A DNA stretch of 63,618 nt, counting the filler, from Dugesia japonica (taxonomy: Eukaryota): the NCBI GenBank assembly GCA_001938525.1. It is 6 parts of 6 records of this genome, joined end to end, with 100 filler letters (N's around TTAATTAATTAA, not from the genome) between each part and the next. Parts side by side here need not be neighbours in the genome. Positions count along the whole stretch, not along the records: positions 26,613 to 36,460 come from MQRL01484267.1; 5 more parts are not named here. One strand, 5' to 3'. Position numbers and translations under genes: made by a program. A model generated the notes under the pieces. That model was not told the origin of the DNA and searched no databases. It saw nothing but the letters and a program-made list of their open reading frames with translations. This document shows positions 371 through 48,656 of the stretch, in pieces. Every line of letters begins with the position of its first letter. The first letter of the stretch is position 1.

Positions 371-739
371 NNNNNNNNNNNNNNNNNNNNNNNNNNNNNN
401 NNNNNNNNNNNNNNNNNNNNCACACAATTTAATCCAATCAGTACTTGGAAAGAAGAATATATTAAAAACATGAATTTCCCGAATCAAAACGAATTTATTA
501 GTGCAATACTCATAGATGTTCTGAGAATATTTGTTAGAAACATTTTATAGGCCGATGATTGTTGAATTCCTATGTTGTTGAATTTTGATATTGATGATCA
601 GATGAGTTCTCCAAACTCATCTAACAAACGTGATTCCAATTTTCCGAAACTAATTGATAAAAAAAATTTTCTAATTTAGAAAATTTGAAAGCCGTTGAAA
701 AATCTTGGAATGCATTCTTATGCGGGGTATTAAATAGTA

Positions 740-2552: not shown

Positions 2553-3109
2553 AAATTTCGAAATATAAACAAATTTAAATATTTAAACAAACTTAAAATT
2601 TATTAATAATCATTTAATTTGGATTAACAAATAAAATTCAGTTTATTTGTTTTTTATTTTTTCAATGAAATCTAACAGTAATCTAATTTAATGAACTAAG
2701 ATTGATAGAATATTAAAAATAAGTAAATATAAGTAAAAGTTGGTTAGAAACATGAAGTTTACTTCAAAATTAATTCAGTAATAAATATTCATTTTATTTA
2801 AATTAATTAAATTAATTAATAAGAAACTCAATTCTAGTTTTTTTATAAATATTAAATATTATAAATATAAAATATAAATAAATATACCTGCTCATTTTTT
2901 CAAATAATAATTACTTCTGTGAAGTAGTTTTTAAAAGCAATTTTAAATTTTTTGTCTCGATTATAATGTTTTTTAATTTTTTTAAAAGACAAATTTATAT
3001 GCTGTGTTTTTGTGTTGTCTTGAATAAATCTTGGAATGAAAAGTGTTAATTTTTTCAATGCAAAGATGAATGTTACAGATTCATCTAACAACTTCAATTT
3101 TGTAAAACG

Positions 3110-6100
3110 TCACCAGTGATATATTTAATTCTCGCTTTTTCTCCATTTGTGTCTGTGTTTGATGTTGGATCGTCAACATAAACTCTCTTTTACCCTTGAG
3201 TACCCATCTGCATTGTTGTGTTCTTTAACTTTCCTTTACTTGAGTTTAAAATCACACTGTAACAAATTTGTCATCCACGTCTAGAATTTTGTAATAATCG
3301 ATTTCTTTGTGTTGTTCATGAACTCCAAAGATTTGTGGACTGTTCTTTTATAAATATCGTTCTTTTATAAATAATGTTCAAATTCGTGTATGGCCAGTAG
3401 TTCTGTTCATTCTAAAATTCGTAAGCTAATTTTAACGATATGAATAGTTGGTCTTTTCATGTCACACAGTATTTTTTCATGAGCTTTCAAATGTATGAAT
3501 CTGTAGGCTATTATCTCTTCCTTTTTCTCTTTGCGCTGACTTAGAACTGTGCCTATTACCTTAGAATTAGTAAAAGTGTCTAGAATATTTAATCTTACCT
3601 TTGATACTCTAATACTGGAATCTTACATAACTTGTCTTTTTGCGCATTGGTACTGATCTAACATGATTATATCTAAACTAATGGAGTATTGCAAATTGAA
3701 GTTTTTTGAAATAAAGGAGTTGCAATCTTTGCGTATTTTTTATAAAACTATGTAGTAGTTTGTCAGTTCTAGAACAGACGATGTTTTCAAGAACATTCTG
3801 GTACTATAGCATTCTCAATCTCCTCAAACTTAACTTTTTTAGTATATTTACCAGCAGGTTTGACTAATGTCTCAAGAACAACACTTCTTTTTTTTAAATA
3901 AAACTTGCATTTCTCAAGGTTTATTTTTAATCTATATTCTCTGATTTGAAAAACAATGTTTCTAGCATCTTTCTCTTATTCTTTTAAGTTTTTTCGCACA
4001 CTAGAATATCGTCCAAATATGTTAAAACTCCATTGAATATTAATTCCTTAAACAATGCAAGCTGGTGCTGTAGTTAATTCAAAAGGCATTTTGTTGAATC
4101 TTGATTAATCTTTCTTTGTACAAAAAGTTGTGACATTACTTGAATTTTTCACAAAATTCCACTTAGTAATAAACTTGTTTGATATCAATCGATGAAATTA
4201 TTTTCTCTTCTAATAAACAATTTAATAATAACTAAATGACTTGTATTAGAAAACATACTTTTTCTTTTATAAAATTTACTAGTCTTTAACTCATACATAT
4301 TATGATTGAGTCGTAAATTTTACCAGCAATAACTAATAGAAAATTTCAAGAGCTGTACAACCTGATGATTACTTCAATTTTCCATAATTCTTTAATCGTA
4401 AACTCAATTTTCTTTTCTAAATGATTCAGCTGTCTCCTAAGGTGTTATACTATTGGATCTCTTTTCACTTTTATTTCATGTATTACCTGTCTCATGTTTC
4501 CGATATATAATTTGGAAATCATGAATATCTTACCTAGATTCTGAATCAATTGAACCATTTTTATTTTACCAATCTCTTTGAGTAACTTTAATGCGTGATT
4601 TTTTCTATCTTTTTCAGAATGTGTTATTTTCAGACATTCATTTTTGATGTTATTTATTTCTATTATTTTCATTAAAAAAACTATTCATTTATCAAAATCA
4701 CCTATCAATTCTGAGTGGAGTTGTCAACTATGATGACTTTAAATTTTCTGAATTTCTTTCCCACTGTATATTCAATTCTGCTATGCCAAACAGTTTGTTT
4801 ATACATAATAAATGATCCGTTCAAAAAGATATTACACAATGTAAACCATAGTTTTCCAAATTTGATTCAATAGTTTTTAATCATGACTGGCGCCACAGCT
4901 CCGGAATCATAGAGAAAATCTTACTTAACTCTATTCTTGTCCATATTCGCTTGTAAATATGTCTCTTCTCCCATTATCATTTTGATTTATTTTATCTCTC
5001 TATACAATAACACTATCAATGACACCAATGGAGTCTTTTTGGTTTTCTTTTCACTACTACATCATGATCTGTTATATTCTTATTTTTTTCTTTTGAATTG
5101 TTCAATTCCTTTCAAATAAACATAATTTTAGAGTTCATTCTACCAGACATACCTGTCAACAAAACATAAGATCTAAAATTATTGCCAGATCTTTCAGAAA
5201 TAAAACATCTGTTTTACTCTTGTTTTTTATACTCATGTTTTTCTCACTAATAACATTTTTTCTCCATAATTTATCCCTCATCAATGCTCCGGAAACCCCA
5301 TCTTTTTTTTAAAATAATTATTTGCTAAATACGTCATCGAAAGCGTGGGCTTTGGCTTAACTATCCGTGTTCTATCTTCCGTCATCACCGGTTTAGTGTT
5401 TCTATCATACACTAATTTTTACGGATAAAAATTTCAAACTAACTTTCTGTCTATTCTTGTCTACTTTATGTCTCTTCACCATATTGGTGTAATTAATCCA
5501 TTTTCGTATAATGCAGACGTTTACATTTTCGATGATTCGTTGAGAATCTTCTTTAGCCTGGTAAATTATTTCGAGGAATTTCATTTTTGTGATCTTGATA
5601 TAAGAATGTGTCATCCATTTTATCTACTATTTCTATTTTGCACTTTTTTTAAGAGTACGCCAATATTTTTTCATTCTTTACTCAATTCTGAATTAATAAC
5701 ATTAGCTATTAGATTTTTTACTATGATCTGGAATGTTGCGAATCTTTTTTCCGTCTTTTTATTCGCCATTACTAATTATAAAACCCACTCTGAAACGGTT
5801 ATTTTATTGTAATGATATCTGTAAACCATTACTTGGTTTTCTCTGTCGTGATCTACATCTTTCAAAAATTTTAATAAATGATTCCATCTTCGTCTGACAA
5901 AAGCCAAGCAAATATATCCAAAAACTTGAAGTCAATAATACTAATCCTTTCTTTGATGTCCTTGAATTATCTTGAAGTTTTTGCCAAACCTTTACGATCA
6001 TATTTCTCACATTGAAAATCATTGATTCTCGAGCTTTTTTGGTAAACTATTTAAAATGAATTTCTTTTTATATTGTCTTTTCACCGCATTCACAGATCTG

Positions 6101-12592: not shown

Positions 12593-13493
12593 TGATAAAC
12601 TTTATATTTAAATTCCTCAAGCATACTGAATATTTAAATTTTCCGCGTATAATTAATATTAATATTTTTCTTTTGTTTTAATTTATCATTTTTTTAAAAA
12701 TTTTTATTTTTGATTTAACGGTCAGATAGGAAAAGTAAAACTCATAGGTATGACTCATTGTTATGAATTATCGTTATGACTCATGGTTTTTTAAAATTTT
12801 TTTTGTTAGGGACATGAATTTAACCATAGGATAGAGAATTAAAAAGTAACATAGGAATGTCTTACTAACTTGTATCGTTAAATCATTTCTTCCTATTAAA
12901 ATCGCATTCAGAAAATTAATTCTTTTGATTACGTAATCCATTACATAACCAATTTTCAAGAATTTTGTACAGTTATTTGTTTATATTGTCTATATTTCTT
13001 ATTGGAAAGTTACAAATTTGATATCAGTAGACGCGCAATAGAAAGCCGCGCAATGTATTGCACTTAAATGTAGAAACATGATATCGCGCCGAACATTACA
13101 TTATTGAACGCACGATTACATGACAAACAAAAATGATTCTAGTGACTTAATCATAAAAGCTATTAAACAAAGACAATTTTAAAGAAATAACTTTATCTAA
13201 ATTCATTGTTGATAAAATAAAAAAGGACGATTTTGTTTTTATTGTCCATTGTTGCAACTTCATTTTCTTTGTTTAACTTGCACTTTTATTGCGCCCCTGA
13301 ATTACTAATGCTCATTGTTTACTTGTATTTGAGTTGCATTGTCTTTGATTAACCTGTATTCATGTTGCACAAGTATGACTCAGTTTTTTTCTTGACTTGT
13401 ACCTGTATTGCATTTTTCTTTGTTTAAGTTTCCTTATCGAACTTATAATTTTGAGCTCTTTAGAGGACTTATATACTCTTAATCAATATTTGA

Positions 13494-13509
13494 GGTCCTA
13501 AAGAGGACC
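13494..13509 (-). promoter_or_regulatory. Histone-mRNA-type 3' stem-loop downstream of Polinton pPolB
   Basis: Minus strand GGTCCT-CTTT-AGGACC (perfect 6-bp stem, 4-nt loop) followed by TCAAA, 130 nt after the pPolB stop. Confidence 0.7.
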
Positions 13510-15699: not shown

Positions 15700-16743
15700 A
15701 TTAATTAGCAAAAAGCTGGTATCCGAATCACATGCATTGTTTTTAAAAAGAAATTCATACTCGAATTGCTTATTGTTGGGGAAAACCAACCTTAAAATAC
15801 ACATACACACACACCTATAACATAGAACAAACACTAGCACGCAGAATTATAACTCAAATCAAAACCATCAAATTATTCCAAACTAACTCATCAAACGATC
15901 CCAACCAAAACAACCAAATCAATGATAGACATTATCTGATCCACGTGACATTATCTGATCATTAGACTTTATAATTTATTGATCCTTTAAAAAATACCTG
16001 AATGTATCTTATCATTTCTTTTTATTAATTTTATTTAACGAAACTGTAAAAGTATGGTTTTAGCTATCAAATTGGTGAATTAATCGCTTTATTTTATTTT
16101 ATTATGTTGTTTTATTTTTATTTTATAAATGAATTTAATTTCAGAAATCTAAATTTTCTATTTATTTTGTAAAATGAATTTAGAAATCTGTTTGTCTTGT
16201 TTAATAATTCGAACGATTGAAAACACGAATTTCCTAAATAAATTCAATCAAATTTGTTTATTTATTTAATAGATTGTAAAAAACGAATTAGAAAATTTTT
16301 ATTTACTTATTTAATTTAAAATTTTAATTTTTGAAAATTCTTATTTATTTTGTAAAAGGTGTCTATTTATTTTTGCAAAAAAATGTAAAGTAAATGTAAA
16401 CATGTGAAAATAATAAGCGACGATTTAATAAAAATAGAGTCGAACCTCATAATTTTCACCATTTAAAAGATGTTCCTGAAGAAGACTATTGTTGAAAATT
16501 TGAACCTTTTTACAAATAAATTTTATTTTGNNNNAAGCCTTTTCTTATTTTAATGAAATTTAAAAGCTGTACAACAGTTTAAATCTTTTGTGATTTACAA
16601 CTGATCAAAACTTATTAACGTGGATCATTGTAATAAAAAAATAAACGCTTATTTTAAAAGTAAATTTTCGAATTCATTTTATAAGGATCACTATATAGTA
16701 TATTTATAAATATTATTGTATATATAATAGACATATTAAGTCA
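15700..16743. mobile_element. Polinton-derived fragment
   Basis: 16500-16560 is nearly identical to 30255-30313 inside the Polinton at 29521. The AT-rich repeats at 16100-16350 resemble 29790-29940. Boundaries are uncertain. Confidence 0.5.
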
Positions 16744-27602: not shown

Positions 27603-28496
27603 TTCCTCTTTCTAATTAATTATATTTCTCCTCAAATATAATTCGTTTAATTTATCTAATATTAATTCTTTTATCTTCTTGAGCCGTGTTTTTATATATT
27701 TTCTTATAACTTTCTCTGGAGCTTTATTTCATATTTATTTTTTTCCTTAAGTAATTAATTTATTAATAATTATTTCTTTTTCAGTTGTATTTATTAATAT
27801 TTATTTTCTTTTATTTCGATGATTATCATTTCTGCACTCCTTTTGTTTGAACATTTGATTTTTATAGTCTTTATTTTGTTCTATGTAATTATTTATTTTT
27901 ATTTCTTTCATATTTTACATTGATACCTCGAAATTCGTTTAATTTATTGTAATTTGTAATTATTCATTTTCATTAAGTAGAAAATTTAATAATTCATATT
28001 TTTATTAGCATTTTTCCACTAACATTAAATTGAAGTACTTTAGTTGCCGACACTTTTCTGTTATCATTGTCAAACTGTATATTAACTGAGTTTTCTTTAA
28101 GTCAAATAAACTTAAAATTCTAATTTTGAATTGAAATGTGTTAAATATACATTAAAATTATGATTTTAATTAGATATTAGAAAAATTAAATATTCGTGTG
28201 CACATCTGTTGTAAATAAAGGTAGTTCTCGTTAGTTTATTTAACAACCAATTAGAATACCTATTTATATGAAAATTTTCATAATCATTAGTGTGCAAATA
28301 TTATAATTGAAATCATTCAACTCTTTATAATTAAAATATAAATATAAATGTTAACCCACAGTACTTAAAGTAATAATATTTAAAAATGATTTTCATTAAA
28401 AATATTATAAACTCAATTAATAAGTAACATAATATTATCACTTGAACACAAACAAGTAAAAGATTAATAAATAATAATAAATACAATCATTTTTTT

Positions 28497-28512
28497 GGTC
28501 CTGAAAGGGACC
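28497..28512 (-). promoter_or_regulatory. Histone-mRNA-type stem-loop (one mismatch)
   Basis: GGTCCC-TTTC-AGGACC followed by AAAAA. It shares upstream AAGTGAGAACGCAT with the copy at 28810. Confidence 0.6.
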
Positions 28513-28809
28513 GAAATGCGTTCTCACTTCATTTACATATTGATTCATTTAATTCCTTCTTTTAATGAAATATTGATTCATCATTAAAAATAAATCTATT
28601 GATTCATTGTTTCTTTGTTTCTAAATAATATTTTCTAAAGTATATTTATAAAAAAATTAAAACATTTAACAATCAAAAAAATTACTATTTTGCTTCAACA
28701 CTTTTTAAACACTAAATTATCGTTATTCTTCTGTTTTCTTTTCTAAATATTAATTTATTAAAATAATTATATCAGAATTAACTGATAATTAGATTCAATC
28801 ACAATTTGT

Positions 28810-28825
28810 GGTCCGAAAGAGGACC
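28810..28825 (-). promoter_or_regulatory. Histone-mRNA-type stem-loop ~41 nt after helicase stop codon
   Basis: GGTCCT-CTTT-CGGACC (one mismatch at the top pair) followed by the histone-type flank ACAAA. Confidence 0.65.
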
Positions 28826-28866
28826 ATTATGCGTTCTCACTTGTTTATTTAGAATATTTGTTTACT

Positions 28867-29466
28867 TTAGAATAAATTTTGAGAAAAATATTCATCCATT
28901 TGATTTGTGAATTTAGATATTATTGGTTTACGATTGGATTCATTACTGTCGTTGATGAACAGAGGTTCGTTGCCGAATATATAAAAATGACACCGTTTTC
29001 TTATTGCTACATTTCGTCCTTTATTCCAATTTATATTGATTAGATCATCCATTGAGTTCCAACAAATGATAATCCTGTCGTTCGCAGGTATTATACCTGT
29101 GCCATATTTCAAATGTATCGAAGTATTATAGCAGGTTATAGCAATTTTATATTTCTTCGGCAGTCCATGTGTGTAAGGGTAGATCATCAATTACACATCT
29201 ATCATACCAAAATCTCAAAGTCCTGGTGAATTGTGACGTGTATTGGTTGCTTAAAAGGACTTAACGCGAAATTGGTTTTCCCAATACCTAAAACAAAAAC
29301 ATAAATTCTTGAAATTTAAAAATTAAATAAATGGCTTTCGTACGATCGTTATCACAATTGAAGAATTCTAATTTCTAATTGGTGTTGGATTTTGGTATTC
29401 CGGGTATTTCATCATCGTTAAAATTTGAACATGTTGGCTGTTCATTAACATTTTCAATGTTGTTTC
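28867..29466 (-). pseudogene. CRESS/geminivirus Rep-like SF3 helicase domain with intron acceptors, frameshifted
   Basis: Composite reading RTKAIYL..[acceptor TTTTAG at 29288]..(G)IGKTNFALSPFKQPIHV..YDRCVIDDLP..SIHLKYGTGIIPANDRIIICWN..AIRKR..EPLF gives Walker A, Walker B, motif B'/C and an Arg-finger region. A second acceptor TTTCAG lies at ~29467. Confidence 0.75.
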
Positions 29467-30210
29467 TGAAATAATATAAAAATTAATAACTTATTAAACA
29501 AAAAACAATAATTTATTACGAGTAGATGGATAGTAGCGTACGGGGCCACCTCGCCCGACCCTTGCAGAGAAAGAAAATTTTAACTGGCCTCGATTTTTAT
29601 TGTTTACATTGTTCGCACAAACGTTTTTAAGATTTTTGATTGACCTAAATTTTAAGGTCTAGTGGCCCCGATTTTAAACATTTTGATTGGTGGAAATTTT
29701 TAAGTTCAGGATCATTTGGCCTCAATTTTTGATGAGTCATAGATGTGTTCAGATGAAATTATCGTTGGGTTTTAAGATCAAGGTAATTTGTTTTTTGTTT
29801 AAATTAAATGAAATTAACGATTTTTATTTAAATTAAGTGAGATTAATGATTTTTTTGTTTAGATTAATTGATTTTTCTGATTGGTTTAAATTTACTGATT
29901 TTTTAGATTTTAATTTAAATTAAGTGATTTAATGATTTTTTTGGATTTGTCATAGAAAGCCGATGGTAAAATTTATTTTTTTTCAAATTTCAAATTTTGT
30001 AGTGAATTTCCGCCTGGGCAATATTAACATCAATATTAGAAACATTACATGTTTCTCAGACAATATTAATAATAATATATAAAAGACAAATGAAAAGGCT
30101 AATCCAAACTTAAAATTTATTGTTGATAAAACGTAGATAATTACAGTTATCATGTACAGTTGTTTAAATCTGGATCTTCATTTTGTAAATTAGATCTTAA
30201 TATTACAAGA

Positions 30211-30312
30211 TTTCATTAAAATAAGAAAAAGCTTTCATCAAAATAAAATTTATTTGAACCTTTTTACAAATAAATTTTATTTTGATCGAAGCATTTTCTT
30301 ATTTTAATGAAA
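30211..30312. repeat. 46-bp inverted repeat with 10-nt spacer
   Basis: 30211-30256 versus the revcomp of 30267-30312 shows 3 mismatches. Confidence 0.85.
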
Positions 30313-30454
30313 TGTCAAATGCGATCAATGGTTAAATCCATAAATTATTCTCACAATTATTGTAATAATGAAATTAATAGTACAAATTAATTAGTTTAAA
30401 TAACAAAGAAATTACCTGTGAATGTGCTTCTTTTCATCCGAGTCTTATTTATTA

Positions 30455-32140
30455 CGAGATAGAATAATGCACGTATGGTACACTTATATTTTTTCAGGCC
30501 ATGCTCTTTTGTCGTCATTATTGGTTAATGCGACTTTTGGTGCTAAGAAACTGTACAGCTGGTGGTTTTTCGTTTCTATTCTTAATTGTTTCACTGAGAC
30601 CGGTTTACTGTAATTGTAACAATCAAGGTATGACTGATGATTAATGTCAGTACCTTTTAATGTTATGATCTTAGCCTTCATCGATTCCTTCTCGCTAAGT
30701 AAGCTATAACCCTTCGGTCTCACGAAAATTCATTCTTTATATTTCCTTCCTTTATTTTTGTCCTTAAAGTTTCCTACCACCGAATTGAGTTTCATGTGAT
30801 AAAAAGTGCGGTCTAATGAGTAATTTAAAGTATTTAATAGTCGATCTTTTACTACCAGTGTCAATAACTTTTCCAANCTAATGTTTCTAACTTCTAAGAA
30901 NAAGCTATCGGTATCCCCAGCTACTATTTCTATCTCGCAATTTTCTTGTTTCCTATATTTTTCTAGATCAATGTATTGAAGTCGATACATTCGTAATTTG
31001 ATTAAATCAAGAACTGTCTGTCCTATGTAACTCGGTCTTTTGAGACACACAATGTCTTTATTTAATTGTACCNCTATTAAATCTTTATCGATCTTAATGG
31101 TTCTCTTAAACCCTGGTTTTGAGGTATAGGTCACTAAATTCTTTGCACTAATTACATATTCTCAAGTTTATTCGTTTCTTCAAATTTTCAACTGATTAGC
31201 CATACAAGCTGTTGTTCATCAGCTTATAGTAACTTTTGTCTAATTTATTCACACTTTCAGCTCTTAATTTAGTGTTTTCGTCGATGCATTGCTTGAAAAT
31301 ATGATCTTGTAAAAACCTAACTGTTCTGTGAACATTTGTAACTTTCACAACTAATTGCAAGTACATTTTTAGTAATCTCCAGTGTACTACGTAATTGAAC
31401 TTTGAATAATGAGTCAACATTAATTTCTAGACCTTTCTTCCTGGAGCATATTGATGTTCGGCTGCAATGGTTAAGTCACTGATATAATTGTAAAGTTCAT
31501 TGAGAATCTCCATGTCAACTTCTAGTGTGTATCCATATTGTAACGACTCGAGATCTGCATATTTACATTCTTCTAAAACTTCTTCTAATCCATAATATAC
31601 CCATTCATAATCTTTGTATGGTAACTTCTGGCTCAAATCCCAACCACACAGATTATTTATATCGATGTATAACAACTCTGTGTTTTTATCTGAAATAACA
31701 TGGTGTTTGTTAGCCCATCTCTAATCTCACCTTCAAAAAAGGTGTAAATGTCTTTATCAATTAAAAACTCGATGGGTTCGTTTTAAGTGATCAAAGCAAA
31801 TGCCCAGCACATACCTGGAATGCCAAAATAATTTAAGAGTTCCAAGCGGTTGTGAGCTAATGATTTGACTCAGAATTGCTGAAAAAAGTCAGCTAGGAGA
31901 AAGACATCCAACTTCATGTACAACAGCATTTAGTCCTGTAAGTTTTTGCATTTCAAGATTTTCCACATATCCACCGCTTTTTTATGTTCTTGTTCACTAA
32001 TTCCATCCCATTTTGGTGGCATTTTCTTGGTATTAACCAGCACTTGTAAACTGGTAGCAAGATTGCAAGGGGAAATTCCCCTTTGTCCTTATAATTCTGC
32101 TTTTGATAAATTGATACATTCAAACAAAGAACAACCAATA
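30455..32140 (-). pseudogene. Polinton pPolB, decayed
   Basis: KGEFP, YMKLDVFLLADFF, LYIDINNL.GW.LSQKLP, KLMNNSLYG, IVAGDTDS, GNFKD, RPKGYS, KVAL..NDDKR. Confidence 0.95.
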
Positions 32141-32413
32141 AAAATAATGCTCACCAACTGCATATCAACTATTTCATACAATGATTAAGTTCAACAAATC
32201 AAAAAGTTGTAAATGCTTTGTTTAACTGGCAGTGGCTTTGCATTTGTATTGCACTTATAATATTTAAACAAATAATTACCAATCAAAACATGTGAATAAT
32301 CAAAAGTAACATATTTTCAACCAATAAAATCAATGCATACAAACTATACAATAAATACTTATCGACACTAAGTTTAAAAGCAAAAATATTTAATAAATTT
32401 TGATTATTTAAAT

Positions 32414-32860
32414 ATGCAACCAAGTATTGAATTAATAAAGGATAATGTTATGACCTGTGGATTACGGAAAGCCTACCAAATTTTATGGAATCCAAATGAA
32501 ATTTTTCAAGAGAACAATATTATATATGTTTCAAATAATTGTATTTATTTATTTTATTACTTAATATTTTCATCTAGGAACCTGTGAAAATACAACAATT
32601 TACTTATAGTTTGGTGATATCTGATATTGGTTCAAAAGACAAGAATACTTTGAATTTATTAGTCAAAAGAATTGAACCGTCAATTATAATAAATGATATA
32701 GTTTTTATCAATTAAAGTGATTCAAAATCGACTGTATTCGAAACATCACAATAATATATGATTCAGGTGAAAATACAAGGAGTCAAGAAAAATGGAGACA
32801 ACATTAACTCAGTAAACTCAATTAATAGAAAAGTTAAATCTCCAATTTGGAAAATTTGAG
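32414..32860 (+). pseudogene. Polinton accessory gene, 2 exons (intron 32528-32577), unknown function
   Basis: Upstream CCAAT boxes and a GT-AG 50-nt intron. Homologous in position and sequence (PV.I after the intron, Y.IQV.I.G.KK) to 53323-53757. Confidence 0.55.
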
Positions 32861-33174
32861 AAATTTTGTAAATGTTGTTATAATAATAAATGTTATTTAT
32901 TTATTCGTCTTTTTAACTAACTCTGTTTAAATCGTAATTTTTAAACAGATTTACCTATCAAATTAAATACAAAAACCTTATCTCTAAATAACGCCTATCA
33001 AAGTAATAAAAACTCTATTTCAAATAATAACTAAAATCTTTATGATAAAAAAATTACTTAAAAACTCTTTTAATTAATAATAACTACCAAATCAAATAAA
33101 AACTTTATTATAATTAACTAACAAAGTAACTATATGAACAAAAATAGAAACAAATTTCATAACAAACAATTTAT

Positions 33175-33471
33175 TAACACAAATTTATAAGCCTCTCGAG
33201 GAGCATATATCTACACTTGTAGCATTTACAATGGAAGTGTAGATATATGTCCTTATAATAATTGTCTAAGACTTGTTGATAGTCTTCTTTTTGCAGGACG
33301 ATGCTTTTCTGAAAAAATGATTGCGATAATATCTAGAAATAAAATATTATAAATAATAAATAAATAAAAAATTAAATATTACCCTTTTCGCTAATCAGGT
33401 CCTCCTGACCATATGATTCTGCTGATTCATAACAACCTTTTCAGAATTCTTCAATTTTTTTTGGAATTCAT
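33175..33471 (-). pseudogene. Polinton small spliced Cys-containing ORF (intron 33382-33333)
   Basis: GT-AG 50-nt intron and C-terminal HCKCYKC. Same position as 53943-54242. Confidence 0.4.
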
Positions 33472-33632
33472 TATTTAAAATTAAAAACTGATTAAAATGA
33501 AATATTTAGTGTGTTATATACAATTCTCTGTTTAACACAAATCGACCAATGAAAAAGAAGTAATAATCAAAAAAGGAAATGCCTTGTTATACTTGCATTC
33601 ATATTACATGACTGTGCATTCTTGTTGTGAAA

Positions 33633-33900
33633 TTAAACAATTAAGTTATAGAAATCAGAAATTATATTATCTACATATCTTTGGTAGTGTAAATTCTTTA
33701 TATGAAGTATTACAATTTTTTTTGATGAAAATACGTTTACACATACAGGTTCATACTTCGTAAGTTGTAATGCGGGAAACAATTCCGGTTCAAACCAGCA
33801 TTTTGTTGTTTTTGCTAATTTATACAAATTGATAACTTGTCCCAAATTGTATTACAATTGTTAATGATTGCAAACGAATATCTTTGATATCATACAGTAA
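33633..33900 (-). pseudogene. Polinton-encoded TBP-like protein, C-terminal repeat (N-half deleted)
   Basis: YDIKDIRLQSLTIV/LGQVINLYKL..WFEPELFPAL..VCVNVFSSKKIVIL matches TBP repeat 2 (YEPELFPGL..LIFVSGKVVLTG). Confidence 0.85.
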
Positions 33901-34085
33901 TCTTTTGCAAGACAGGCCTATAGATTAGTAATAGACAACTTTTTATTGAATCATTTCAATATGCAACAATAAATCTACTTGGTTATATTTTTCTCGACTT
34001 TACACAACAATGTCTAGGCAAAGTGAGGGTGAGAACCGATATTTTCAATTCTGGTCGTGTTACTGTGTATAAACAAACCAAGTAA
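33901..34085 (+). pseudogene. Polinton packaging ATPase (FtsK/HerA, A32-like) C-terminus
   Basis: FARQA..LFIESFQYAT..GYIFLDFTQ..RVRTDIF matches the ARQ..AT..YGYL.LD..R.RTNIF tail of Polinton ATPases. Confidence 0.8.
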
Positions 34086-34099
34086 TTATTATATTTAAA

Positions 34100-34640
34100 A
34101 ATGGCAAAATTTTAAAAGTTTATAGTTGATCAAATAAAAAGAATTCCGAAGATAAAAAAAGGAAAACGAACAAAAAGCGTATTGTAAGAAAAAATGTGGA
34201 AAGAGGAAACAATCTAAACTGTTGAACATTTTTAAGAAACTATCAAAACTGTATGGAAAGAAAATGTCCAACGTAAACGGAAAATGGAAATCATTTTAAA
34301 CAAATACGGGTAAGTTATATTATTAAAATATAAGAAGTACAACGAAGTATTCCAATTTTTACATCATTAATTAAATCTTCAAAATCGGTGAAAATGCAAA
34401 TTTTGAAATCATTTCCAACGTTTGTTATGGATGATTTAATTGAAATTATTATAAGTATTGTTCGCGAAAATGTAAATGTGAGTATTTCTAGAAAGGAAGT
34501 ATTGAAAAAACATAAAAGAACGCGATTAACACTTGTAAATACCAAAAATAGGAAATTGGTGAGACAAATAATACGTCATAATAAAAGAAGTAGCTTTATA
34601 GCAGCATTACTACCAATTAAAAAATTGATGAGTAGTAAAA
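34100..34640 (+). pseudogene. Basic small Polinton ORF(s) between ATPase and integrase
   Basis: The Lys/Arg-rich ORF (LIEIIISIVRENV..LKKHK..SFIAALLP) resembles small basic Polinton core-like ORFs. Confidence 0.45.
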
Positions 34641-35612
34641 TTGATGAAAGAAACACAAAAAACAAAATCAAAAACCAAAACGTGGTTATCGGGTCAACTA
34701 GCGTACAGTTTTAACAAACCAATGTTGAAAAGATTTCCAACAAGATTGTATAATAGGTTTGGTATTGATGATTTATGGCAGATGAATCTAATGGAGATGA
34801 TTCCATATTCAAAAATAAATAAACGATATAAGTTTATTTTGACATGTATTGATGTATTCAGTCGATTTGCAAGAGCTATTCCGGTCAAATCGAAATCCGC
34901 TAATGAAATGGAACTTGCAATTAAGTCAATATTCAAAGATGGACATCCAGATAATTTGCAAACAGATTTGGCTAAGAAACTTTACAACTCTAAAGTCAAA
35001 AATCTTTTATCACATCTAAACATAAACCATTATATCGTATTCTCTCAGTATAAAGCGGCAAATGTAGAGAGATTTAATCGCACATTAAGATATGCTTTGA
35101 AAAAATACTTTGTGTATACTGGTAATAAAACTTGGATAAATGTGTTGTCAAAATTGATTCATAGTTATAATCATTCAAGTCATAAAAATGTAAATAGAGC
35201 AAGACCGGTTGATATAGGTTCAAACAATGAATTAAAATTATGGTTATCGCGTGATCAAAGTAAAGCAAATTAGAAACCAAACTATAAAGTCGGTATCATG
35301 TTAGAATCTCAAAAATAAGTGCATCTCCATTCATTAAAAACTTTGATAGTAACTGGAGCGATGAAGTGTGTCAAATAACAACAATCTATTCTAAACAAAA
35401 TCCAGTCATATATTTAATTAAAGATTATGAGAATAATATTATAAAAGGAAAACTTTATGAGCAAGAATTACAAGTCATTCCATCTTCTACTATATATAGA
35501 ATCGAAAAATTAATAAAATTGAAAGAAATCGGTTAAAATAAAGAATATTATGTAAAATGACATGGATATCAAAAACCTACTTGGATATTATCATCACAGT
35601 TAGTTAATAATG
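34641..35612 (+). pseudogene. Polinton retroviral-like integrase (c-INT) with C-terminal chromodomain-like region
   Basis: DDLWQMNL, LTCIDVFSR, LQTD, KAANVERFNRTL; downstream WSDEV.., GKLYEQELQ and YYVK*HGY...W. Frameshifted after 35273. Confidence 0.92.
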
Positions 35613-36460
35613 ACTTTGAATAATTTCTATAAACCTTTATCTAGTAATAGCTGTCTTCCTATTCATCCGAATAATAATGCTAGTAAATTCATTGTTGAGC
35701 TTCAAAATTCGATTTATATGGATGGTCAGTAGGAAGTAGCATTGTTAGATTTTACCTTTGTATATCAAACATTTCCATTATATAGCAAGTCTAAAATTCA
35801 ATACATGTCTACAAGAAATATATCAAATGAAATAACTGTTACAATTAATCACAAAGAAGAACCCTTGAGTGTAAGCAAAAATGAAAATAACAATGTCTAT
35901 ATGGCGTTTAATGGTTATTTAACTATTAAATGTGAATATCCATATGTTGTCATATTTGAAAATGAAATAGTTGCAAATAGATTAGGGCTCTCATATAGGA
36001 TTAATCAAATGGATCCTGGATATTTTCATATTAAGTACATAGCATTTAAAGAATATTTTCCAGTAGAATATGTAAAATTTAAAATAGAGTATTGTAAAAT
36101 AAATTATCCTACTATACAGTTGAAAGATGAATTATAATTAACAGAAATTGAAGAATTAAGTAAATATTTAACAGAAAGCGGTTCTGAACTATTTTATACA
36201 ATCAGTCTCAAAGAAAATAATCTATTTCAAATGTCACTAAAAATGATATCAAAACTGTTACATTCGATAAAGTCTTGACAAAAACATTGGGATTAGAAAA
36301 ACAAGCATATTCACATTCAGAATTGAAAGATGGCATATTGCAAGGTATTACAAATCCCAAAATAATTAAGTTATATCAACAAATGTTCATCTATAGTAGT
36401 ATTGTTGAACCTATAATTGTAGGAAATGTTAAAGTTCCTCTTTAGAGATCGGTATGGATA
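35610..36460 (+). pseudogene. Polinton minor capsid (penton-like, PX) protein
   Basis: N-terminal FY..LSSNS....P.NNASKF.VEL.N.I..DGQ*EVAL and C-terminal MFIYSSIVEPIIVGNVKVPL*R match the Polinton minor capsid motifs. Confidence 0.85.
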
Positions 36461-36504
36461 NNNNNNNNNNNNNNNNNNNNNNNNNNNNNNNNNNNNNNNN
36501 NNNN

Positions 36505-36516
36505 TTAATTAATTAA
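36505..36516. other. Artificial scaffold-joining spacer
   Basis: N-TTAATTAATTAA-N. Confidence 0.95.
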
Positions 36517-36560
36517 NNNNNNNNNNNNNNNNNNNNNNNNNNNNNNNNNNNNNNNNNNNN

Positions 36561-36634
36561 CACTAATTACATCACTAATCGGCGGGGGGGTTCACTGAAT
36601 GTGTGCTGGCTATGACTGCTACTATCTATCTACT
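36561..36634 (-). mobile_element. Polinton-type terminus at scaffold edge
   Basis: Minus strand AGTAGATAGATAGTAGCAG followed by a C-run. Confidence 0.6.
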
Positions 36635-39600
36635 GATAATATCATAATAGATTTTCCAGAATTCGTTGTCGGAAAACTTTACGATCATTCAAATTCGATG
36701 AGGTTTCCTTACTTGACATGATCGGAATTTCCGGAGTGCTCAATTGTCTTCTTAAATTAACTTTTTTCGTCGTATTGACAGGAGCTTACGGAATAACATT
36801 AATACTCGTTTCCAAAGGTTTATTATGATTTTCATAAAACCTCGTATCAATATTTTTCAAATCAGAAATCTCTTTATTTAAATTTGTTATTTCCGACAAA
36901 AGAGTAATTATTTTCATTTTGGTTTTCACAAATTCGTTTGAAATTGTATCCGTAGTTTCTTTGTAATAGTCCAAATCGATTTTACTTGGACTATTACTTA
37001 GACTATTCTAATCGCTCAGTGTTACGCTTTATAACAAATTAATTGTTGCCTCTAATTTTCTGGTTCTTTAAAACCATGTTTTTGTGATTCTATTCATATT
37101 TATATCTTAATTTATATAATGTATTGTGTATGCAAACAATTTGTTGTTGATTGGCGTTATCTGTCTTGAAGTATTATTTGTCATTATTGCGATTTTGAGA
37201 AATTCTTTTGTTTTTTTCTTCGGTTTCTGAAAGTGTATGCAAAATTTGTTTGTTATAGTCCAATTTACCTTTATTTTTCACTAATTCCTTTGAAATTGTA
37301 TCTGACGTTTCTTTGTTATGGTCCAAATTGAATTTACTTAGACTATTCTAATCAATCAGTATTAGGCTTTATAATCATCTACCCTGACTTAACTAAGCAC
37401 AATAATTTCATGTTCACAGAATTCTCGCAAAAGATACTTTAGTTTCTGAATCAGATAATATCGAAATAGAATTTCCAGAATTCGTTATCGGAAAACGTTA
37501 CGATCTCTAAAATTCAATGAAGTTTCTGGACTTGACTTTATCAAAATTTCTAGAGTGCTCAATTCTCTTCTTAAATTAACGTTTTTCGTTGTATTTACTG
37601 AAGCTTACGGAATAACATTAATACTCGTTTCCAAAGTTTTATTATGATTTTCTTGAAACCTCGTATTAATATTTTTTAAATCAGAAATCTTTTTATTTTA
37701 AATTTTTTAGATTAATATTTAGATTTATTTTGATTTTCTTAAAACCTCGTATCATAATTTTTCAAGTCATAATTTTCTATATTTAAATTTGTTATTTCCT
37801 TCAAAAGTGTAATCACTTACATTTCGGTTTTTACTAATTCCCTTGAAAATATATCTGAAGTTTTTTTTTAATAGTCCAAATTGAATTTACTTTTAACTAT
37901 TCTAATCAATCAGTATTGGGCTTTATAATCATCAACCTTGACTTAACTAAGCACAATAATTTCATGTTCACAAAATTCTTGCATAAGAATCTTCGGTTTC
38001 TGAATTGGATAATATCGAAATGGTTATTTAAAATCTTTTTATTTAAATTTGTTATTTCCTACAAAAGTGTAATATCTTTCATTTCAGTCGTCACTAATTC
38101 TTTTGAAATTATATCTGAAGTTTCTTTGTAATATTCCAAATCTAATTTACTTTGACTATTCTAATCACTCAGTACTAGGCTTTAAATTCATAAATTATGA
38201 CTTGACTAAGCACAATAAGTTCATGTTCACAGAATTCTTGCATAAGAATCTTCAGTTTCTGAGTCAAATAACATCAAATTGGATTTTCCATAATTCGTTT
38301 TCAAAAGCTTTACTATCATTTTAGGTCGATGAACTTTCCGGACTTGACTTCATTAGAATTTCGAGAATGCTCCATTCTATTCTTAAATTAACATTTTTCT
38401 TCGTATTGACAGGAGTTTATGGAATAACATTAGTACTCGTTTACAAAGGTTTATTATGATTGTCTTGAAACCTCGTATCAATATGTTTCAAGTCGGAAAT
38501 TTCTTTATTTATATTTGTTATTTCCAACAAAAGTTTAATCACTCACAATTCAGTTTTACTTATTCCCTCGAAAATATATCTAACGTTTCTTTGTTATATT
38601 TCAAATCGAATTTACGTGGAATATTCTAATCACTCAGTATTATGCTTTTTAATCATATACCCTGACTTAACTAAGCGCAATAATTTCATGTTCACAGAAT
38701 TCTCGCATAAATACTGGCAGGTTATTACGTCTGTCTCTTTTGAAATTCTGTGTAAAGTCTTTTCTTGAGGGTTTTCAATACAAATTAGTTGTTGGCTCTA
38801 ATATCTTCGTTCTTTTAAACCTTGTTTCTGTTGTTCTTTTGATGGATCTTTCTTTGTGCGGTTCTGATATTTGATCTACAGATTTCTCAATTATATTTAT
38901 TCTGGCTGATTTATAAGTTGCGTTGATACTTTTATTTGCACCGGTTTTACCACAATCCACACAGCTGACTTCGTTGACATTGATGACTTCGAAAATAGGA
39001 TTGCTGCGAAATTTTACTTCTTAGCAATGATAATTAATTTAATTATTTTAATTATTTGGTTCAATACTGTTTGGTAACAGAAAATAAAAAAATTAATTAA
39101 TCATTCAATAATATAAAATGATAATAATTTATATTCTAATTAATAAAATTTGATTTGTTTTAATTCATCCTTGTTCATTAAAAATAATAATATTTATTGA
39201 ATAAATAAGACTTTTAATTATGTTTATCGATAATAATAATAATAATTTCACAATTTTAAATAATTAATTCAAACATAGTAATAATAATGTTGGATTGCTT
39301 ACGATGCATCTTTGATAATCATATTTGATGCATCATTCAATAGCATAAAATGATAATAATTTATATTATAATTAATATAATTTGATTTGAATGCAAAAAA
39401 TTGTTTTTAATGGGCGCGATCTGTCTTGAAGTTTTATTTTTCATTATTGCCATTTTGAGCAATTATTTTGTTTTTTTCTTCGGTTTCTGAATCAGATAAT
39501 ATCGAAACGGATTTTCCAGAATTCGTTGTCGGACTTGACTCCATCAAAATTTCCAGAGTGCTGTAATTCTCTTCCTAAATTAATGTTTTTCGTCGTATTG

Positions 39601-40305
39601 ACAGGAGCTTAAGGAATAACATTAATACTTGTTTCCAAAGGTTAATTATGATTTTCTTGAAACCTCGTATCAATATTTTTTAAGTAGGAAATCTTTTTAT
39701 TTAAATTTGTTATTTCTTCTAAAAGTGTAATCACATTCAATTCGGTTTTCACTAATTCCCTTGAAATTGCCTTGGCCACCATTACTTTAGGCCATAATAT
39801 AAAAAGAACAATCTGGTGGCATAAATGTTCTAAAGCATTATATTATTTAAAGTTATTTAGTGATATTAGTTTTACTCTTCATTATATCAAGCGTTTGGAC
39901 TAATCCTCATAACCATCAAACCTGAACTATCCAGCAAATCAATGATAATTATACATAAAAACGGATTGATTTGCCCTTTCCTAAAGACATGGTGCCAGCG
40001 TAACTCATTCAACAATTAGGCCTTCCTTCCTAGTGCAGGAATCGTTGCAACTAGCTTTTCTATCAACAAAAGGTTTAATAAAATAATCTGATCAATAAGC
40101 CATTATTTTTCCCATTTCTTTGGTTTCTGAATCATATAATATCGAAGTGGATTTTCTAGAATGCGTTGTCGGAAAACTTTATCATTTTAATTCGATGAAG
40201 TTTCCGGACTTGACTTCATCAGAATTTCTGGAGTGCTCAATTCTCTTCTTAAATTAACGTTTTTCGGCCCATTGACAGAAGCTTATTGGATAACATTAAT
40301 ACTTC
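36635..40305 (-). repeat. Degenerate ~400-bp tandem repeat of decayed coiled-coil-coding sequence (about 6-7 partial units)
   Basis: Recurrent blocks GGAATAACATTAATACTCGTTTCCAAAGG (~36790, 37609, 38421, 39613) and TGACTTAACTAAGCACAATAATTTCATGTTCACAG (~37385, 37939, 38662). The minus frame reads EITNLNKEISDLKNIDTRF. Confidence 0.8.
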
Positions 40306-42260
40306 ATACCATCCAGTCTAGAATAAATTGTTTTTATTACTTTCACATAAACTTTCCACAGGTTTTGCGTCATTTGTATATTCATAGATAAATTTTCTGT
40401 AATAGTTTGCTAAACCCAAAAAATTGCGTAATTTCTTTAAGCATTTTGGTCTTTCAAATTCTTTAATAATTTTATTTTCTCTGTATCAGTTTCTATCCCA
40501 TTTATACTTATTATATGGCCAACAAATTTGATATAATCTTTCTTAAAATGACATTTTTAAACCTGATTGTTGTATCTTCTGGAATACTTTTTCTATGAAT
40601 TAATAATGTTTATCTGATTTTCTCGAAAATATGAGTATGTCATCTAGGTAGACAACTGCCTCTTTTCAATTCAATTCTCCAAGAACTTTATTCATAAGTT
40701 TCTGGAATGTTCCAGGTGCTGCTTCAATACCAAATGGCATCCTGTTGAAACAATATTGTTTATTTTTCGTGGAGAATGCTGTTTTCAATATGGAATCTTC
40801 CTCAAGCTCCACTTGATAATACGCGTTACCTTAATCAATAGTCGAGAAATATGTAGCGCCATTTAAAATATCTAGTAATTCATTCATGTTTGACATCGGA
40901 AATTTTGTTCTTTCTGCCACAGTATTAAGAGTTCTTAAGTCTAAACATATTCTTATGTCTTCCTTATTCGTTTTCCTGACACAGACTAATGGTGTATTCC
41001 GCGGTGATTCACATTCTTTAATAATCTCATATAATTCCATTTATTTGATATGTTCATCAATTTTTTCAATCAAATGTGCAGGTTGTCTTCTAGGATTCAA
41101 TGCAATTGGTTTACCCAAAGTAATGATTTCATGTCTCAATAAATTCGTTTTACCAACGTCCCACCTATGTTTCATAAAAACTTTACTTGTTGAATTCACT
41201 AATTTTGCAATTGTTGGATCCTCAAATTCTTTTTTGTTTTCTATATTATCAATAGTATTAAAAAAGGCTTTTCTATTGTTACACTTTGTTTCCAATATAT
41301 TTTAAGCCTTTAACTCTATATTAAACGCTTTCAAAAAATTCATTCCAGCAATTAGTTTTGGTGATATTTTATTTGCAATATAAACGTCAATATTATTTTC
41401 CGTTTATTATTTATCGTTACTAAACCCTCTATTTTTTAACGGACTATCGTTCGCACATTTTATTTTCATATTACTCTGCTTAGTAATCATAATGTGAAAT
41501 TTTTTAGGACACTTTGTTCAATTACACTTATCTTAACTCCTGTATCTAATAAGCATCTAATATTATTATTGTTTATATTCACGTAAACACTCGGTCTACC
41601 ATTCATTGCATCATATTTAATTATTAAATCAGTTTCATTCATCGTACATAACTCAGTGCTTAACTCAGTATTGATTGTTCATAATTTTTCATACTTATTA
41701 ATTGCTGTTGTTGGATTAAAACGTTCACTGGTTGTGAGATTATACAAATCATTTTTATTAATATTAGAAACATTATCAAAAAGAATATTCATTATTTATT
41801 GTATTTACATATTTAGATAAATTAAAATCAAACCTACAATCACATTCAATCTCATTCAAACAATTTTTACTCAGAAGATGACTTACATTTATTATACTTT
41901 TGTTACCTCCTCTAGTACAAAAGCTTTGGCATTTGGGTGTGACTCTTTATATTCATAATATTTATCATTTTGTTTTTCTTCGGGAAATTCTACATTTATT
42001 CCTACGACTTGTCTGGCAAATATTTCTTTTAATCCATATTATTGATGTCTAAAATGTCCTTATTTGTGACAATGTACGCATTTCACATTTAGACATTCTT
42101 GACTGCGATGTCCTATTTCTCTGCAAGCCCAAAATCTGAAACCTTCTGGTTTTATTTGATTGAAGAATCGAATTGATTGATTGAATCAATCAAAATCCTT
42201 GATAAACTGGTTAACGTCGTTTCCAATTTCAAACGTTTCTGGATGTTTAATGAAATTTGC
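40306..42260 (-). mobile_element. Decayed Gypsy (gag zinc knuckles, PR, RT)
   Basis: WACREIGHRSQEC and CVHCHK*GH (two CCHC-type knuckles, ~42045-42135), LLDTG (~41535-41555), ICLDLR.LN, RMPFGIEAAPGTFQ and YLDD (~40635-40655). Confidence 0.92.
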
Positions 42261-42554
42261 CAATAAAGTGGTCTCCATGTTAGAGTTATTATTTCTTAAG
42301 TTAAGAGAATTCATTGAAAACCAAGTTCTGATAAAAAAATGTATTTAAAAATTTACACAATAAAATACAAAAATAACAATAATAAAGCAACACATTTATT
42401 TAAGGATTTTGTCATCTTCTGGTAAATTGATTGATCATACGTAAAATGCAACATTCGAAATTTATCTAAACTATTTTTTTATTTCAAATCATTAAATTAT
42501 TATTTTTGAAACTAATTTAAATTCTATTTATTATATTTAAATTTGTAAATCTCA

Positions 42555-44030
42555 CAGTCACTATGATGTCAGTTATTTCTAACGTAAGTTTCTCATAGCT
42601 AGTCTGGCCGTTAACCAGCACTTAATTGAATTTCTTCACGTTGAAATAATTTTGTGGAAATATTTTTCTTTTGAAATCTTTTGTTGTTATTTGAGTAATT
42701 GGCTTCGTAAGATGGGTTTTAATCGACATTTACCTCCGCTTGAGTTGATTGATGGATTTGATTTGCATCACCTGAAGCTATGGCAATGTATTTAGCCATG
42801 ATGATTGCATCTTGGACTAGAGGGATCTATTATTGCTAATAGTCACTATGAGGTCAGTTATTTCTAACATTAGTTTCTCATAGCGACTCCCACCGTTCAC
42901 CAGCACTTAATTGAATTTAGTCACGTGGACATTCATGCGCGAACAATTAAGTTCAATCATGTTGTTTAGATTCAGTTTACTTGAGGCATTATTTTCATTT
43001 TTTTCTTGTTCTTATCTATGTTGTTCACTTGAGAATAACATCATACTAGTCTCAAAAGGATTTTTGGCCAATAGTTGAAAGCCTAACAAAACTCAACATG
43101 AAAGATATGAATAAACGTGACATAGTTGAGATATCTTCACAATTTTCTTTTGCATAATCGTCCAAGATGATCATTAAAATCATGTCAAAACTTTTTAATG
43201 ACCTTGCTTGTACTTTTTGAATTTTCATTGATTTCTGAATATTCGTCTTTTTCAAAAAAATCTGATTTATTTTTATTAACAGAAATAGAAATATTCGGAA
43301 ACACTTTTGTAGAAATTCTTTTCTTTTTAAGTTCTTTTGGTTTTTGAGTTGTTAGCTTCTTAAGGTGGGTTTTAATTGACATTTACATACGACTGAGTTT
43401 ATTGATTGATTTGATTTGCATCACCTGAAGCAATATCAATGGATTAATCCATGATGATTGCATCTTGGACTAGAGGGATCTATAATTGCTAATAGTCATT
43501 ATAATGTCAGTTATTTCTACCATTAGTTTCTCATAGCTACTCTGGCCGTAAACCAGCGCTTAATTGAATTTCTTCACTGTGAAATCTTTTTGTGGAAATC
43601 ATTTTCTTTTGAAATCTTTTGTTGTTATTTGAGTCGTTGGCTTTTTGAGGATGGCTTAATCAATATTTACCACCGTTTGAGTTGATTACTGGATTTAATT
43701 TGCATCACCTAAAGCTATGACAATAGATTTAGCCATAATGATTGCATTTTGAACACGAGTTTTTACGTTCTAGGAAAGAAGGGATTTATTATTGCTTATT
43801 ATTACTATGAGGTCAGTTATTTCTTATATTAGTTCCTCTTAGCTACTCTCACCGTTAACCAGCATTTAATTGAATTTATTCACGTTGACAATCATGCCAG
43901 AGCAGTTTGGTTCAATCATGTTATTTAGAATCGGTTTACTTGAGGCATAATTGTCATCTTTTTTCTTATTCTTATCTTTTTTGATCACTTGCGAATAAGT
44001 GCTTGACTTTTTATTGATTTATGAATATTC
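42555..44030. repeat. Degenerate tandem repeat, ~290-bp core (4 cores plus extensions)
   Basis: (AGTC)ACTATGA(T/G)GTCAGTTATTTCT at ~42557, 42841, 43494 and 43804; GATTTGCATCACCTGAAGC at ~42760, 43413 and 43696. Confidence 0.8.
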
Positions 44031-47333: not shown

Positions 47334-48010
47334 TTAAAATGTAGAAATAGCAAATCCGAGGGCCCAGCTTAGATATGTTCCATTTATGCTTTTTGAAATA
47401 TGTATTTTATCACCCATATAAAACTTGTATCCTTTGAAAAATAGAGCCGCAATATATGACATATCTACGCACAAAAAATGTACAAATGGGCTTCCCTTAG
47501 CAAGACGATCCATTAAAGTACATTTCGTATATGCTTCACTATTTATTTTATACATGCTGTATTTAATTGTATCATTTTTAGATTTATTAGCCATAGCTGA
47601 GGATATTAAATAATAGAATGCAGAAATACCAACAAAATCCATATCCTCGTGGTACATTCTAATTGGTTGTATATTTGTAAGATAAGAAATGCCTTTTTCG
47701 TGGCAATAGCTAGATCTATTTCGGAGAGAAGTATAAAATCTACAGTAAATTGGGATTTCGCAATTACGATATTTAAATCTAGCTAGAACGTCATTATGCA
47801 TACATTTAGATCCTAGGGATTCTTCTCTACAACAGGAATCTACGCAATCCGTTGCATTGAAATATTTTGCACGTATTTCATTAATACCCANNNNATTATA
47901 ACCAGCAACATAAATATAATATTCCTTCCCGAATAATGTCATAGTTTTATCGGGTGGTGAATCATTTGTGGTTGCAAAATTATATTGTGTTTCCCAAATG
48001 ATGTTGCTTT
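47334..48010 (-). pseudogene. GDA1/CD39 family NTPDase (apyrase), C-terminal half, intronless, 5'-truncated
   Basis: YYIYVAGY..GINEIR, FVGISAFYY, FLCVDMSYIAALF..GY and C-terminal ACR5 SWALG. There is no C-terminal TM segment. Confidence 0.75.
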
Positions 48011-48157
48011 GGGATATAATTGTTGAATTTCTCTAGGCGAATCTGTCAATTGATTCTTTCTTAGACTGATGAGTTTGTTTAGCGTAAGGTTTTTTTTTAA
48101 TAAGGAAATTATATTTTCTTAATTAATTAGTAAAATATATAAACTCAACAATTGCTT

Positions 48158-48440
48158 TGGCAACATCAATTGGGAAACAGAATATAATTTTGCAACCACA
48201 AATGATTCACCACCGGATAAAACTGTTAGTATAACATTATTCGGGAAAGAATATTATATTTATGTTGCTGGTTATAATTACATGGGTATTAATGAAATAC
48301 GTGCAAAATATTTCAATGCAANGGATTGCGTAGATTCCTGTTGTAGAGAAGAATCCCTAGGATCTAAATGTATGCATAATGACGTTCTAGATAGATTTAA
48401 ATATCGTAATTGCGAAATCCCAATTTACGGTAGATTTTAT
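48158..48440 (+). pseudogene. Inverted partial duplicate of the NTPDase fragment
   Basis: Near-identical revcomp of ~47735-48007 (GINEIRAKYFNA.DCVDSCCREESLG..). Confidence 0.85.
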
Positions 48441-48656
48441 AAAATTTATATTTTGATTCTTAATCCTGATTCTCTTATTTTGTAAAATATTTCNNNNNNN
48501 NNNNNNNNNNNNNNNNNNNNNNNNNNNNNNNNNNNNNNNNNNNNNNNNNNNNNNNNNNNNNNATCATGTATCAACTTTTAAAACGTTGCCTGTGCCGTTG
48601 CTAACACGAATGGAATCCAATTCAACCTAAAGAATGAAGTTTGAACCAAATCAACA

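Follow-up and report, generated by a model that had tools for sequence, protein, structure and literature searches.

The Rep Fragment

The DNA analysed here (the window) is a stretch of 63,618 nucleotides from Dugesia japonica. At 29465-28867 its minus strand carries a Rep gene of which the 3' half is left, in broken form, with the Walker A, Walker B, motif C and arginine finger of an SF3 helicase. The fragment and the features around it are as follows.

29521-36634, no strand: decayed Polinton-like element with short inverted termini (16 of 17 bases match), truncating the Rep gene
29466-29520, minus strand: second predicted intron remnant, AT-rich with an AG acceptor end, cut by the Polinton-like terminus
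29467-29466, minus strand: second AG acceptor
29327-29465, minus strand: predicted preceding exon, linker and beta-strand before the P-loop, with a stop at 29377-29375
29344-29324, minus strand: RTKAIY(L), frame one
29288-29326, minus strand: predicted intron remnant inside Walker A, AT-rich, keeping its AG acceptor but lacking the donor and the first half of the P-loop
29289-29288, minus strand: AG acceptor inside Walker A
28867-29287, minus strand: predicted last Rep exon, running from midway through Walker A by way of Walker B, KYG, motif C and the arginine finger to the C-terminus and stop
From 29287, minus strand: (G)IGKTNFALS, frame two
29194-29183, minus strand: VIDD, frame one again
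29109-29101, minus strand: KYG, frame three
29073-29056, minus strand: IIICWN, frame three
29007-28993, minus strand: AIRKR, frame three
28965-28957, minus strand: PLF, frame three
28869-28867, minus strand: Rep stop codon, frame three
28270-28866, no strand: non-coding 3' part of the repeat family, where summed depth stays high as far as about 28250-28290 and deep contigs show joints; left edge approximate
28805-28842, no strand: hairpin motif GGTCC-N6-GGACC (core at 28810) with conserved flank, about 40 bp past the Rep stop
28492-28529, no strand: second hairpin copy (core at 28497), 313 bp further out, 79% identical
13494-13509, no strand: third, stand-alone hairpin copy

Every helicase motif listed in a first-pass annotation of this DNA was found on the minus strand at the place given, and so was the second acceptor that it put at about 29467. 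The order Walker A, Walker B, motif C, arginine finger is that of SF3 helicases and is kept despite the frameshifts. That reading of motifs and order stands, but it left unstated that the fragment is spread over three frames, with frameshifts near 29215 and at 29150-29137, and that the in-frame stop lies in the preceding exon. Both frameshifts fall in the predicted last exon, together with a short deletion near 29213.

Searched with phmmer against 1.84 billion proteins, a 63-aa piece of the window had seven matches, four of them repeat-protein noise and three true relatives (E 2e-20, 1e-10 and 3e-9), namely P0002, P0004 and P0005 with 67, 46 and 44% identity. A further relative, P0009, is matched by three collinear window pieces (E 4e-16 within the window). 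The motifs are therefore real and not products of chance. In Pfam, neither the three window frames nor P0002, P0004, P0005, P0009 and P0011 reached a useful score against any Rep or helicase family, and a PDB search by sequence was blank. A word-indexed search with P0001 yielded none of 17 candidates, and tblastn gave no match in plasmids and nine, all by chance, in phages. L001 was rejected as a relative, since 10 residues of a phage protein match there by chance.

Relatives, Fold and Phylogeny

A profile of P0002, P0004 and P0005 recovered P0009 (1 of 2087 candidates), a 290-aa Rep with HUH motifs I-III and an SF3 helicase (FRITLPF, HHMEIF and YCMK, then GPSGIGKT, VVDD, IICSN and AIERR). Twelve of 2669 candidates were retained in a second round, comprising nine family members and three viral CRESS Reps (24-36% identity). 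HUH motifs I-III are absent from the window copy, which is cut at 29521, and present in P0009, P0020 and the viral contig L144, which answers the suggestion of the first-pass annotation that the N-termini of intact relatives be inspected. Broken paralogues of P0009 (P0010 and P0013) are 72-88% identical to it. P0011, P0018 and P0020 form a second sub-family near the Rep of L144, whose members, from Logan and three JGI records, fall in a single cluster at 90%. No relative was found with alignment A2 in metagenome contigs (462 pattern matches) or viral contigs (600), with P0009 in viral contigs (11 pattern matches), or with A6 in prokaryote genomes (116 pattern matches).

By Atlas features P0009 clusters with CRESS Reps at 0.97. 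Its model, built from a 40-row alignment (pLDDT 86, as against 30 for a single-sequence model), matches the Rep domains of circovirus, nanovirus and redondovirus and the AAV and SV40 initiators in PDB, the top row by E-value being SV40 large T, also an SF3 initiator. P0009 is accordingly modelled with the Rep fold. Compared with viral models, P0009 is 43% identical to the PEVE type 2 Rep and 14-24% identical in the other 49 rows listed. The Rep of the planarian virus-like element PEVE is the named protein nearest to the family, by way of P0009; the first-pass annotation had named neither PEVE nor its integrated form PIVE.

A scan of IMG/VR for the family gave one locus, L144, from 133 pattern matches. 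This contig of 5699 bp is bounded by long terminal inverted repeats, carries several partner genes, all 5' of Rep, and is probably the large segment of PEVE type 1. Its Rep is 45-48% identical to P0009 and P0011 and has HUH motifs I-III. L144 shows no DNA match to the window, and its other ORFs of at least 90 aa, which lie on the side of Rep that is lost in the window, found nothing there. Two ORFs of 277 and 626 aa run opposite to Rep (52-3015, minus strand) and match nothing in Pfam or PDB. By eye we take the 277-aa ORF to resemble a stretch of parvovirus capsid; if it is one, the element would be a Rep/parvovirus chimera.

The contig of P0009 (L067) is eukaryotic, and its Rep cassette (1720-3630) lies between two parts of a non-LTR retrotransposon with a Ulp1 protease, the start of an RT and, later, a zf-RVT, the RT core being missing. 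The Ulp1-bearing retrotransposon is presumably NeSL/Utopia-like. Within the cassette there is no other gene and no long inverted repeat. Three 109-bp tandem repeats and a (TA)n run follow the Rep gene.

A quick tree was computed from 71 helicase rows and 127 columns: the window (with X at the breaks), nine family members, 57 CRESS loci or proteins and four begomoviruses. Helicase segments came from 109 of 141 viral loci and were thinned to 58 by identity. The window joins P0002 with support 98, and the ten family rows form one branch (support 100, length 1.08) nested among unclassified CRESS Reps, a placement that is partly by design, because the CRESS rows were taken as relatives of the family's best viral matches and genomoviruses were not sampled on purpose. 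The window branch is 36-42% identical to L144 over the motif B-C parts, and P0002 is 37% identical to it. By sequence comparison, the window Rep is placed in the PEVE clade.

Relatives, motifs and tree agree with the earlier identification of an SF3 helicase from a CRESS-type Rep in an animal genome, but not with its assignment to the geminivirus/genomovirus type. In those viruses Asn is described as replacing the arginine finger (PMC8780604), which is kept here as AIRKR in the window and AIERR or AIRRR in relatives. Begomovirus Reps score 23-33 bits against the family and the best unclassified CRESS Reps 75-94 bits (109 ORFs), and in the tree the begomoviruses sit on a branch of 3.97. A Rep of the geminivirus/genomovirus type was rejected on these three grounds.

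Predicted Introns

Along the fragment the GC content alternates between 11% (29467-29520), 32% (29330-29466), 12% (29288-29329) and 33% (28870-29287), in a window of about 27% GC. Near its 5' end the stretch of 39-42 nt within Walker A lacks a GT, so the donor is missing, as the first-pass annotation had supposed. It breaks the collinearity of the window with P0009 and L144, contig coverage dips over it, and a related copy (an X2 contig with a loose end at 29298) has similar but diverged AT-rich sequence at the site. The 3' end of the upstream exon matches P0009 at the expected place with a score of 29; of 1500 segments drawn at random from the window, 35 attain that value. The comparison with P0011 (511 of 1500 random segments score as high) and a profile test were not significant, and the sequence homology of this exon is modest. 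A family contig carries a net 3-base indel in it, at 29411-29414, in four of four runs. In the same window a host ANTH/ENTH-domain gene, PICALM/AP180-like (exons within 2163-2582, minus strand), has two AT-rich introns of about 63 and 43 nt that resemble the Rep remnants.

Predicted introns also occur in the relatives. The Rep of L067 has a clean 40-nt GT..AG intron (predicted, 2864-2903) after the arginine finger and a probable one of 43 nt (predicted, 1963-2005) before motif I, but none in Walker A. That of L144, also without a Walker A intron, is predicted to carry a 56-nt intron between motifs I and II, removal of which restores the 22-residue spacing of these motifs seen in P0009. P0020 starts before motif II with unrelated residues, in the style of a gene caller at an intron. 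The predicted sites thus differ between Rep lineages, at four or more positions. Since the virus-like L144 carries a predicted intron too and the sites vary, introns in this family mark nuclear transcription and not domestication.

Three raw RNA runs (about 25, 25 and 6% read, control gene not included) contained no spliced read and had zero depth over 28890-29211; 15, 18 and 25 partial reads were seen, none 95% alike and mostly poly-A artefacts. As to the claim of an intron-bearing gene, the AT-rich anatomy with AG ends indicates that the gene probably did bear introns, and the RNA check proposed with that claim brought no spliced read. The Rep introns of the window are predicted, and well supported by anatomy. 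It is quite unlikely that Walker A has no intron, the frame reading RIYVFVLGIGKT being the genuine P-loop in slight decay and the match upstream of it fortuitous. The BLAST match does run on through this frame, donor GT and spliced reads are lacking, and P0009, P0011 and L144 are open at the site. Yet the frame lacks the first P-loop glycine, has 12% GC and meets a stop 13 codons before the lysine; a DRT-plus-strand match to P0009 lies just upstream in another frame; and P0012, too, opens within Walker A on unrelated residues, which is how gene callers behave at introns.

Hairpin Motif and Copy Number

The pattern GGTCC-N6-GGACC, defined from two of its three copies, has three matches in the window and none in 100 shuffles, and a pattern with a 5-base loop has no match. 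The copies sit within about 50 shared bases. The first, with a 6-bp stem, folds weakly better than shuffles (z -0.6 to -1.2) and the second has z of -1.4 and -2.4. Beside the copy at 13494 no Rep sequence matched; an imperfect inverted copy of the loop side lies about 40 bp upstream (13452-13509), resembling a subterminal inverted repeat. The hairpin past the Rep stop is a candidate Rep binding site or end signal, and that at 13494 a candidate non-autonomous end. The non-coding part at 28270-28866 holds no ORF of 90 aa or more.

In four DNA runs from three studies, contigs of the locus itself have a depth of about 6-11. Related contigs, with 26-34 differences over 180-227 bases, reach 424-1332 in the same runs, contig depth being neither copy number nor a test of integrated against extrachromosomal DNA. 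Because the excess is 50-150-fold in every run, the deep contigs are best taken for a high-copy family with some 85% identity to the window copy; they cover the upstream exon too. We consider it unlikely that they stem instead from a PEVE-like virus persisting outside the chromosomes of the laboratory animal, with the window holding one old integrated fossil of it. In its main text PMC3198968 reports that PEVE was not found integrated, a few contigs carry most of the depth, and chromosomal state is invisible to contigs. Against such a virus stand a similar depth ratio across three studies (2014, 2015 and 2025), coverage of the region by many different contigs and, weakly, zero RNA reads over the coding part in three runs.

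The Polinton-like Element and Other Features

The Polinton-like element contains an rve integrase match (34632-35273, E 2e-7) and a weak DNA_pol_B match (30730-31161, E 0.012), and its flanks show no matching target duplication. Contigs free of differences bridge the 29521 junction in X1, X2 and X3 (one of which may be the source sample). The junction is real, and the gene is cut there by a Polinton-like terminus, as first annotated. The element is unrelated to the Rep gene. When the rest of the Rep element was sought beyond it, tandem repeats and a Gypsy-like fragment were found instead, namely arrays of imperfect 250-1200-bp repeats at 36635-44000 and an antisense frame of Gypsy-like pol at 40835-41305.

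Inside the Polinton-like element, at 30210-30313, is a near-perfect 47-bp palindrome with a third arm 13.6 kb away (16513-16559). DNA depth is very high around 30030-30200, suggesting a nested MITE-like repeat. Elsewhere in the window there are a GDA1/CD39 apyrase fragment (47334-48485, E 1.5e-7), duplicated as a 212-bp inverted repeat of 96% identity that may reflect either misassembly or a recent inversion, host INTS8 exons (56223-56507, plus strand) and a short ORF (54523-54936, minus strand) that weakly matches the TBP fold (E 0.0025) and may belong to another mobile element.

Two roles that had been put forward for the fragment are very improbable: a domesticated gene of the host, and a helicase accessory to an older Polinton-like element. 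The fragment adjoins a Polinton-like terminus, and the Atlas features of its short piece alone point toward DUF5906/VapE-like helicases. But all full-length relatives are HUH-fused Reps outside Polintons, neither L067 nor L144 has Polinton genes, and the Rep gene is cut by the 29521 terminus and lies outside it. As for domestication, the copy is broken, multicopy and unexpressed over its coding part in the RNA runs examined.

Origin and Spread of the Element

The reading that we favour, and hold to be probable, is that the window carries the broken 3' half of a Rep of the PEVE/PIVE family (HUH-SF3 in intact relatives), likely a dead chromosomal copy of a high-copy virus-like repeat; the repeat probably owes its spread to rolling replication driven by Rep, and a Polinton-like element would have inserted into this copy later. 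In Reps of this kind the motif III tyrosine nicks one strand at the origin, the SF3 ring unwinds the DNA and a host polymerase copies it. In the intact element a spliced Rep would likewise nick one strand at the end signal through its catalytic tyrosine and unwind the DNA as an ATP-driven SF3 ring; a host polymerase would copy the element, and the copies would then integrate and accumulate. The window copy, by now dead, would have lost its 5' half to the Polinton-like insertion.

The favoured reading may be refined to a capsid-less rolling-circle transposon, in which Rep alone (HUH and SF3) moves itself and short hairpin-bearing non-autonomous pieces. This is conceivable, as is the transposon-like Rep element proposed in the first-pass annotation, and we rate it well below an even chance. 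Two hairpins follow the stop, one after 40 bp and the next 313 bp beyond it, a third stands by itself at 13494, and several X17 contigs have the motif in other contexts; the Rep cassette of L067, with predicted introns and neither other genes nor long inverted repeats, lies between two retrotransposon halves; and P0009 has broken paralogues. Set against this, L067 has no GC-rich hairpin of the window type, the hairpin folds weakly, and neither an empty site nor an insertion signature was seen. Moreover, whole PEVE-like genomes and Rep-only transposons cannot be told apart here, because the partner genes of L144 all lie 5' of Rep, the side lost in the window and in L067, and missing partners prove nothing.

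Tentatively, and as a slightly longer shot, there might be a third kind of eukaryotic rolling-circle transposon: a PEVE-type sub-lineage that shed its partner genes, moves as a spliced Y1 HUH and SF3 Rep in tens or hundreds of copies, and drives short hairpin-bearing elements in several unrelated small-intron eukaryotes. If so, it would be a virus-to-transposon transition beside Helitrons and Replitrons. Were Rep alone to mobilise hairpin-bearing copies, this would be an HUH transposon keeping the viral SF3 helicase that Replitrons lack, and a tractable case of an ssDNA virus turning transposon in a laboratory animal. The favoured reading itself hints that viral Rep genes may spread in animal genomes in the manner of transposons.

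Comparison with Known Systems

PEVE was originally described, reportedly, with a two-segment, two-helicase layout, the second helicase being E1/NS1-like. The window shares its Rep family (43% identity for P0009), and L144 falls in the same branch. PEVE is extrachromosomal according to the main text of PMC3198968, whereas the window copy is chromosomal and broken. From L144 in particular it differs in lying on a separate sub-branch, in the sites of its predicted introns and in its hairpin, GGTCC-N6-GGACC being absent from L144. For the long terminal inverted repeats and partner genes of L144 no counterpart was found in the window, where one element end survives.

Schmidtea mediterranea carries an integrated PEVE form, annotated in Repbase as PIVE, and the Reps of PEVE large segments stand beside S. 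mediterranea PIVE_3p with support labels of 90-99 (PMC3198968, Fig. S7). Integrated planarian Reps of PEVE type, as the published account of PIVE_3p indicates, are already in print. PIVE resembles the window element in being an integrated planarian element, and its PIVE_3p groups with the PEVE Rep; by description, the Rep family of the window may be PIVE itself. Introns and hairpin go unmentioned in the main text of PMC3198968. PEVE/PIVE are obscure and barely followed up in the literature searched, where a single paper names either. No other description of this Rep family, its introns or its hairpins was found there, subscription journals and Repbase Reports lying outside the scope of the search. 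The present analysis places PEVE/PIVE in a wider Rep family, with predicted introns, across several metagenomes and sequencing runs.

Unclassified CRESS and crucivirus Reps with an arginine finger (P0015-P0017, L089, L104) agree in domain order, motif spacing and fold at 24-36% identity, but belong to small viral genomes with open Reps at the loci compared, while the window family has its own long branch (1.08). The geminivirus-like Rep transposon of Tuber melanosporum is also a multicopy CRESS Rep in a eukaryote, with a microsatellite as in L067, but is fungal and is described in PMC3198968 with a gemini/genomovirus-type Rep, transposase ORFs and 37-bp inverted repeats.

PMC10288648 describes Replitrons and Helitrons as HUH elements that move by copy-and-paste, end in hairpins, and have spliced genes and non-autonomous partners. 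Replitrons have short terminal direct repeats and a hairpin at the right end; in the window a hairpin lies 3' of the Rep gene as a candidate end signal. Replitrons are without a helicase in that account and the window family has SF3, for which reason a Replitron was rejected for the window Rep. Helitrons have a Y2 Rep and an SF1B helicase, and were rejected in turn on the single YxxK and the SF3 domain of P0009, a Y1-type Rep.
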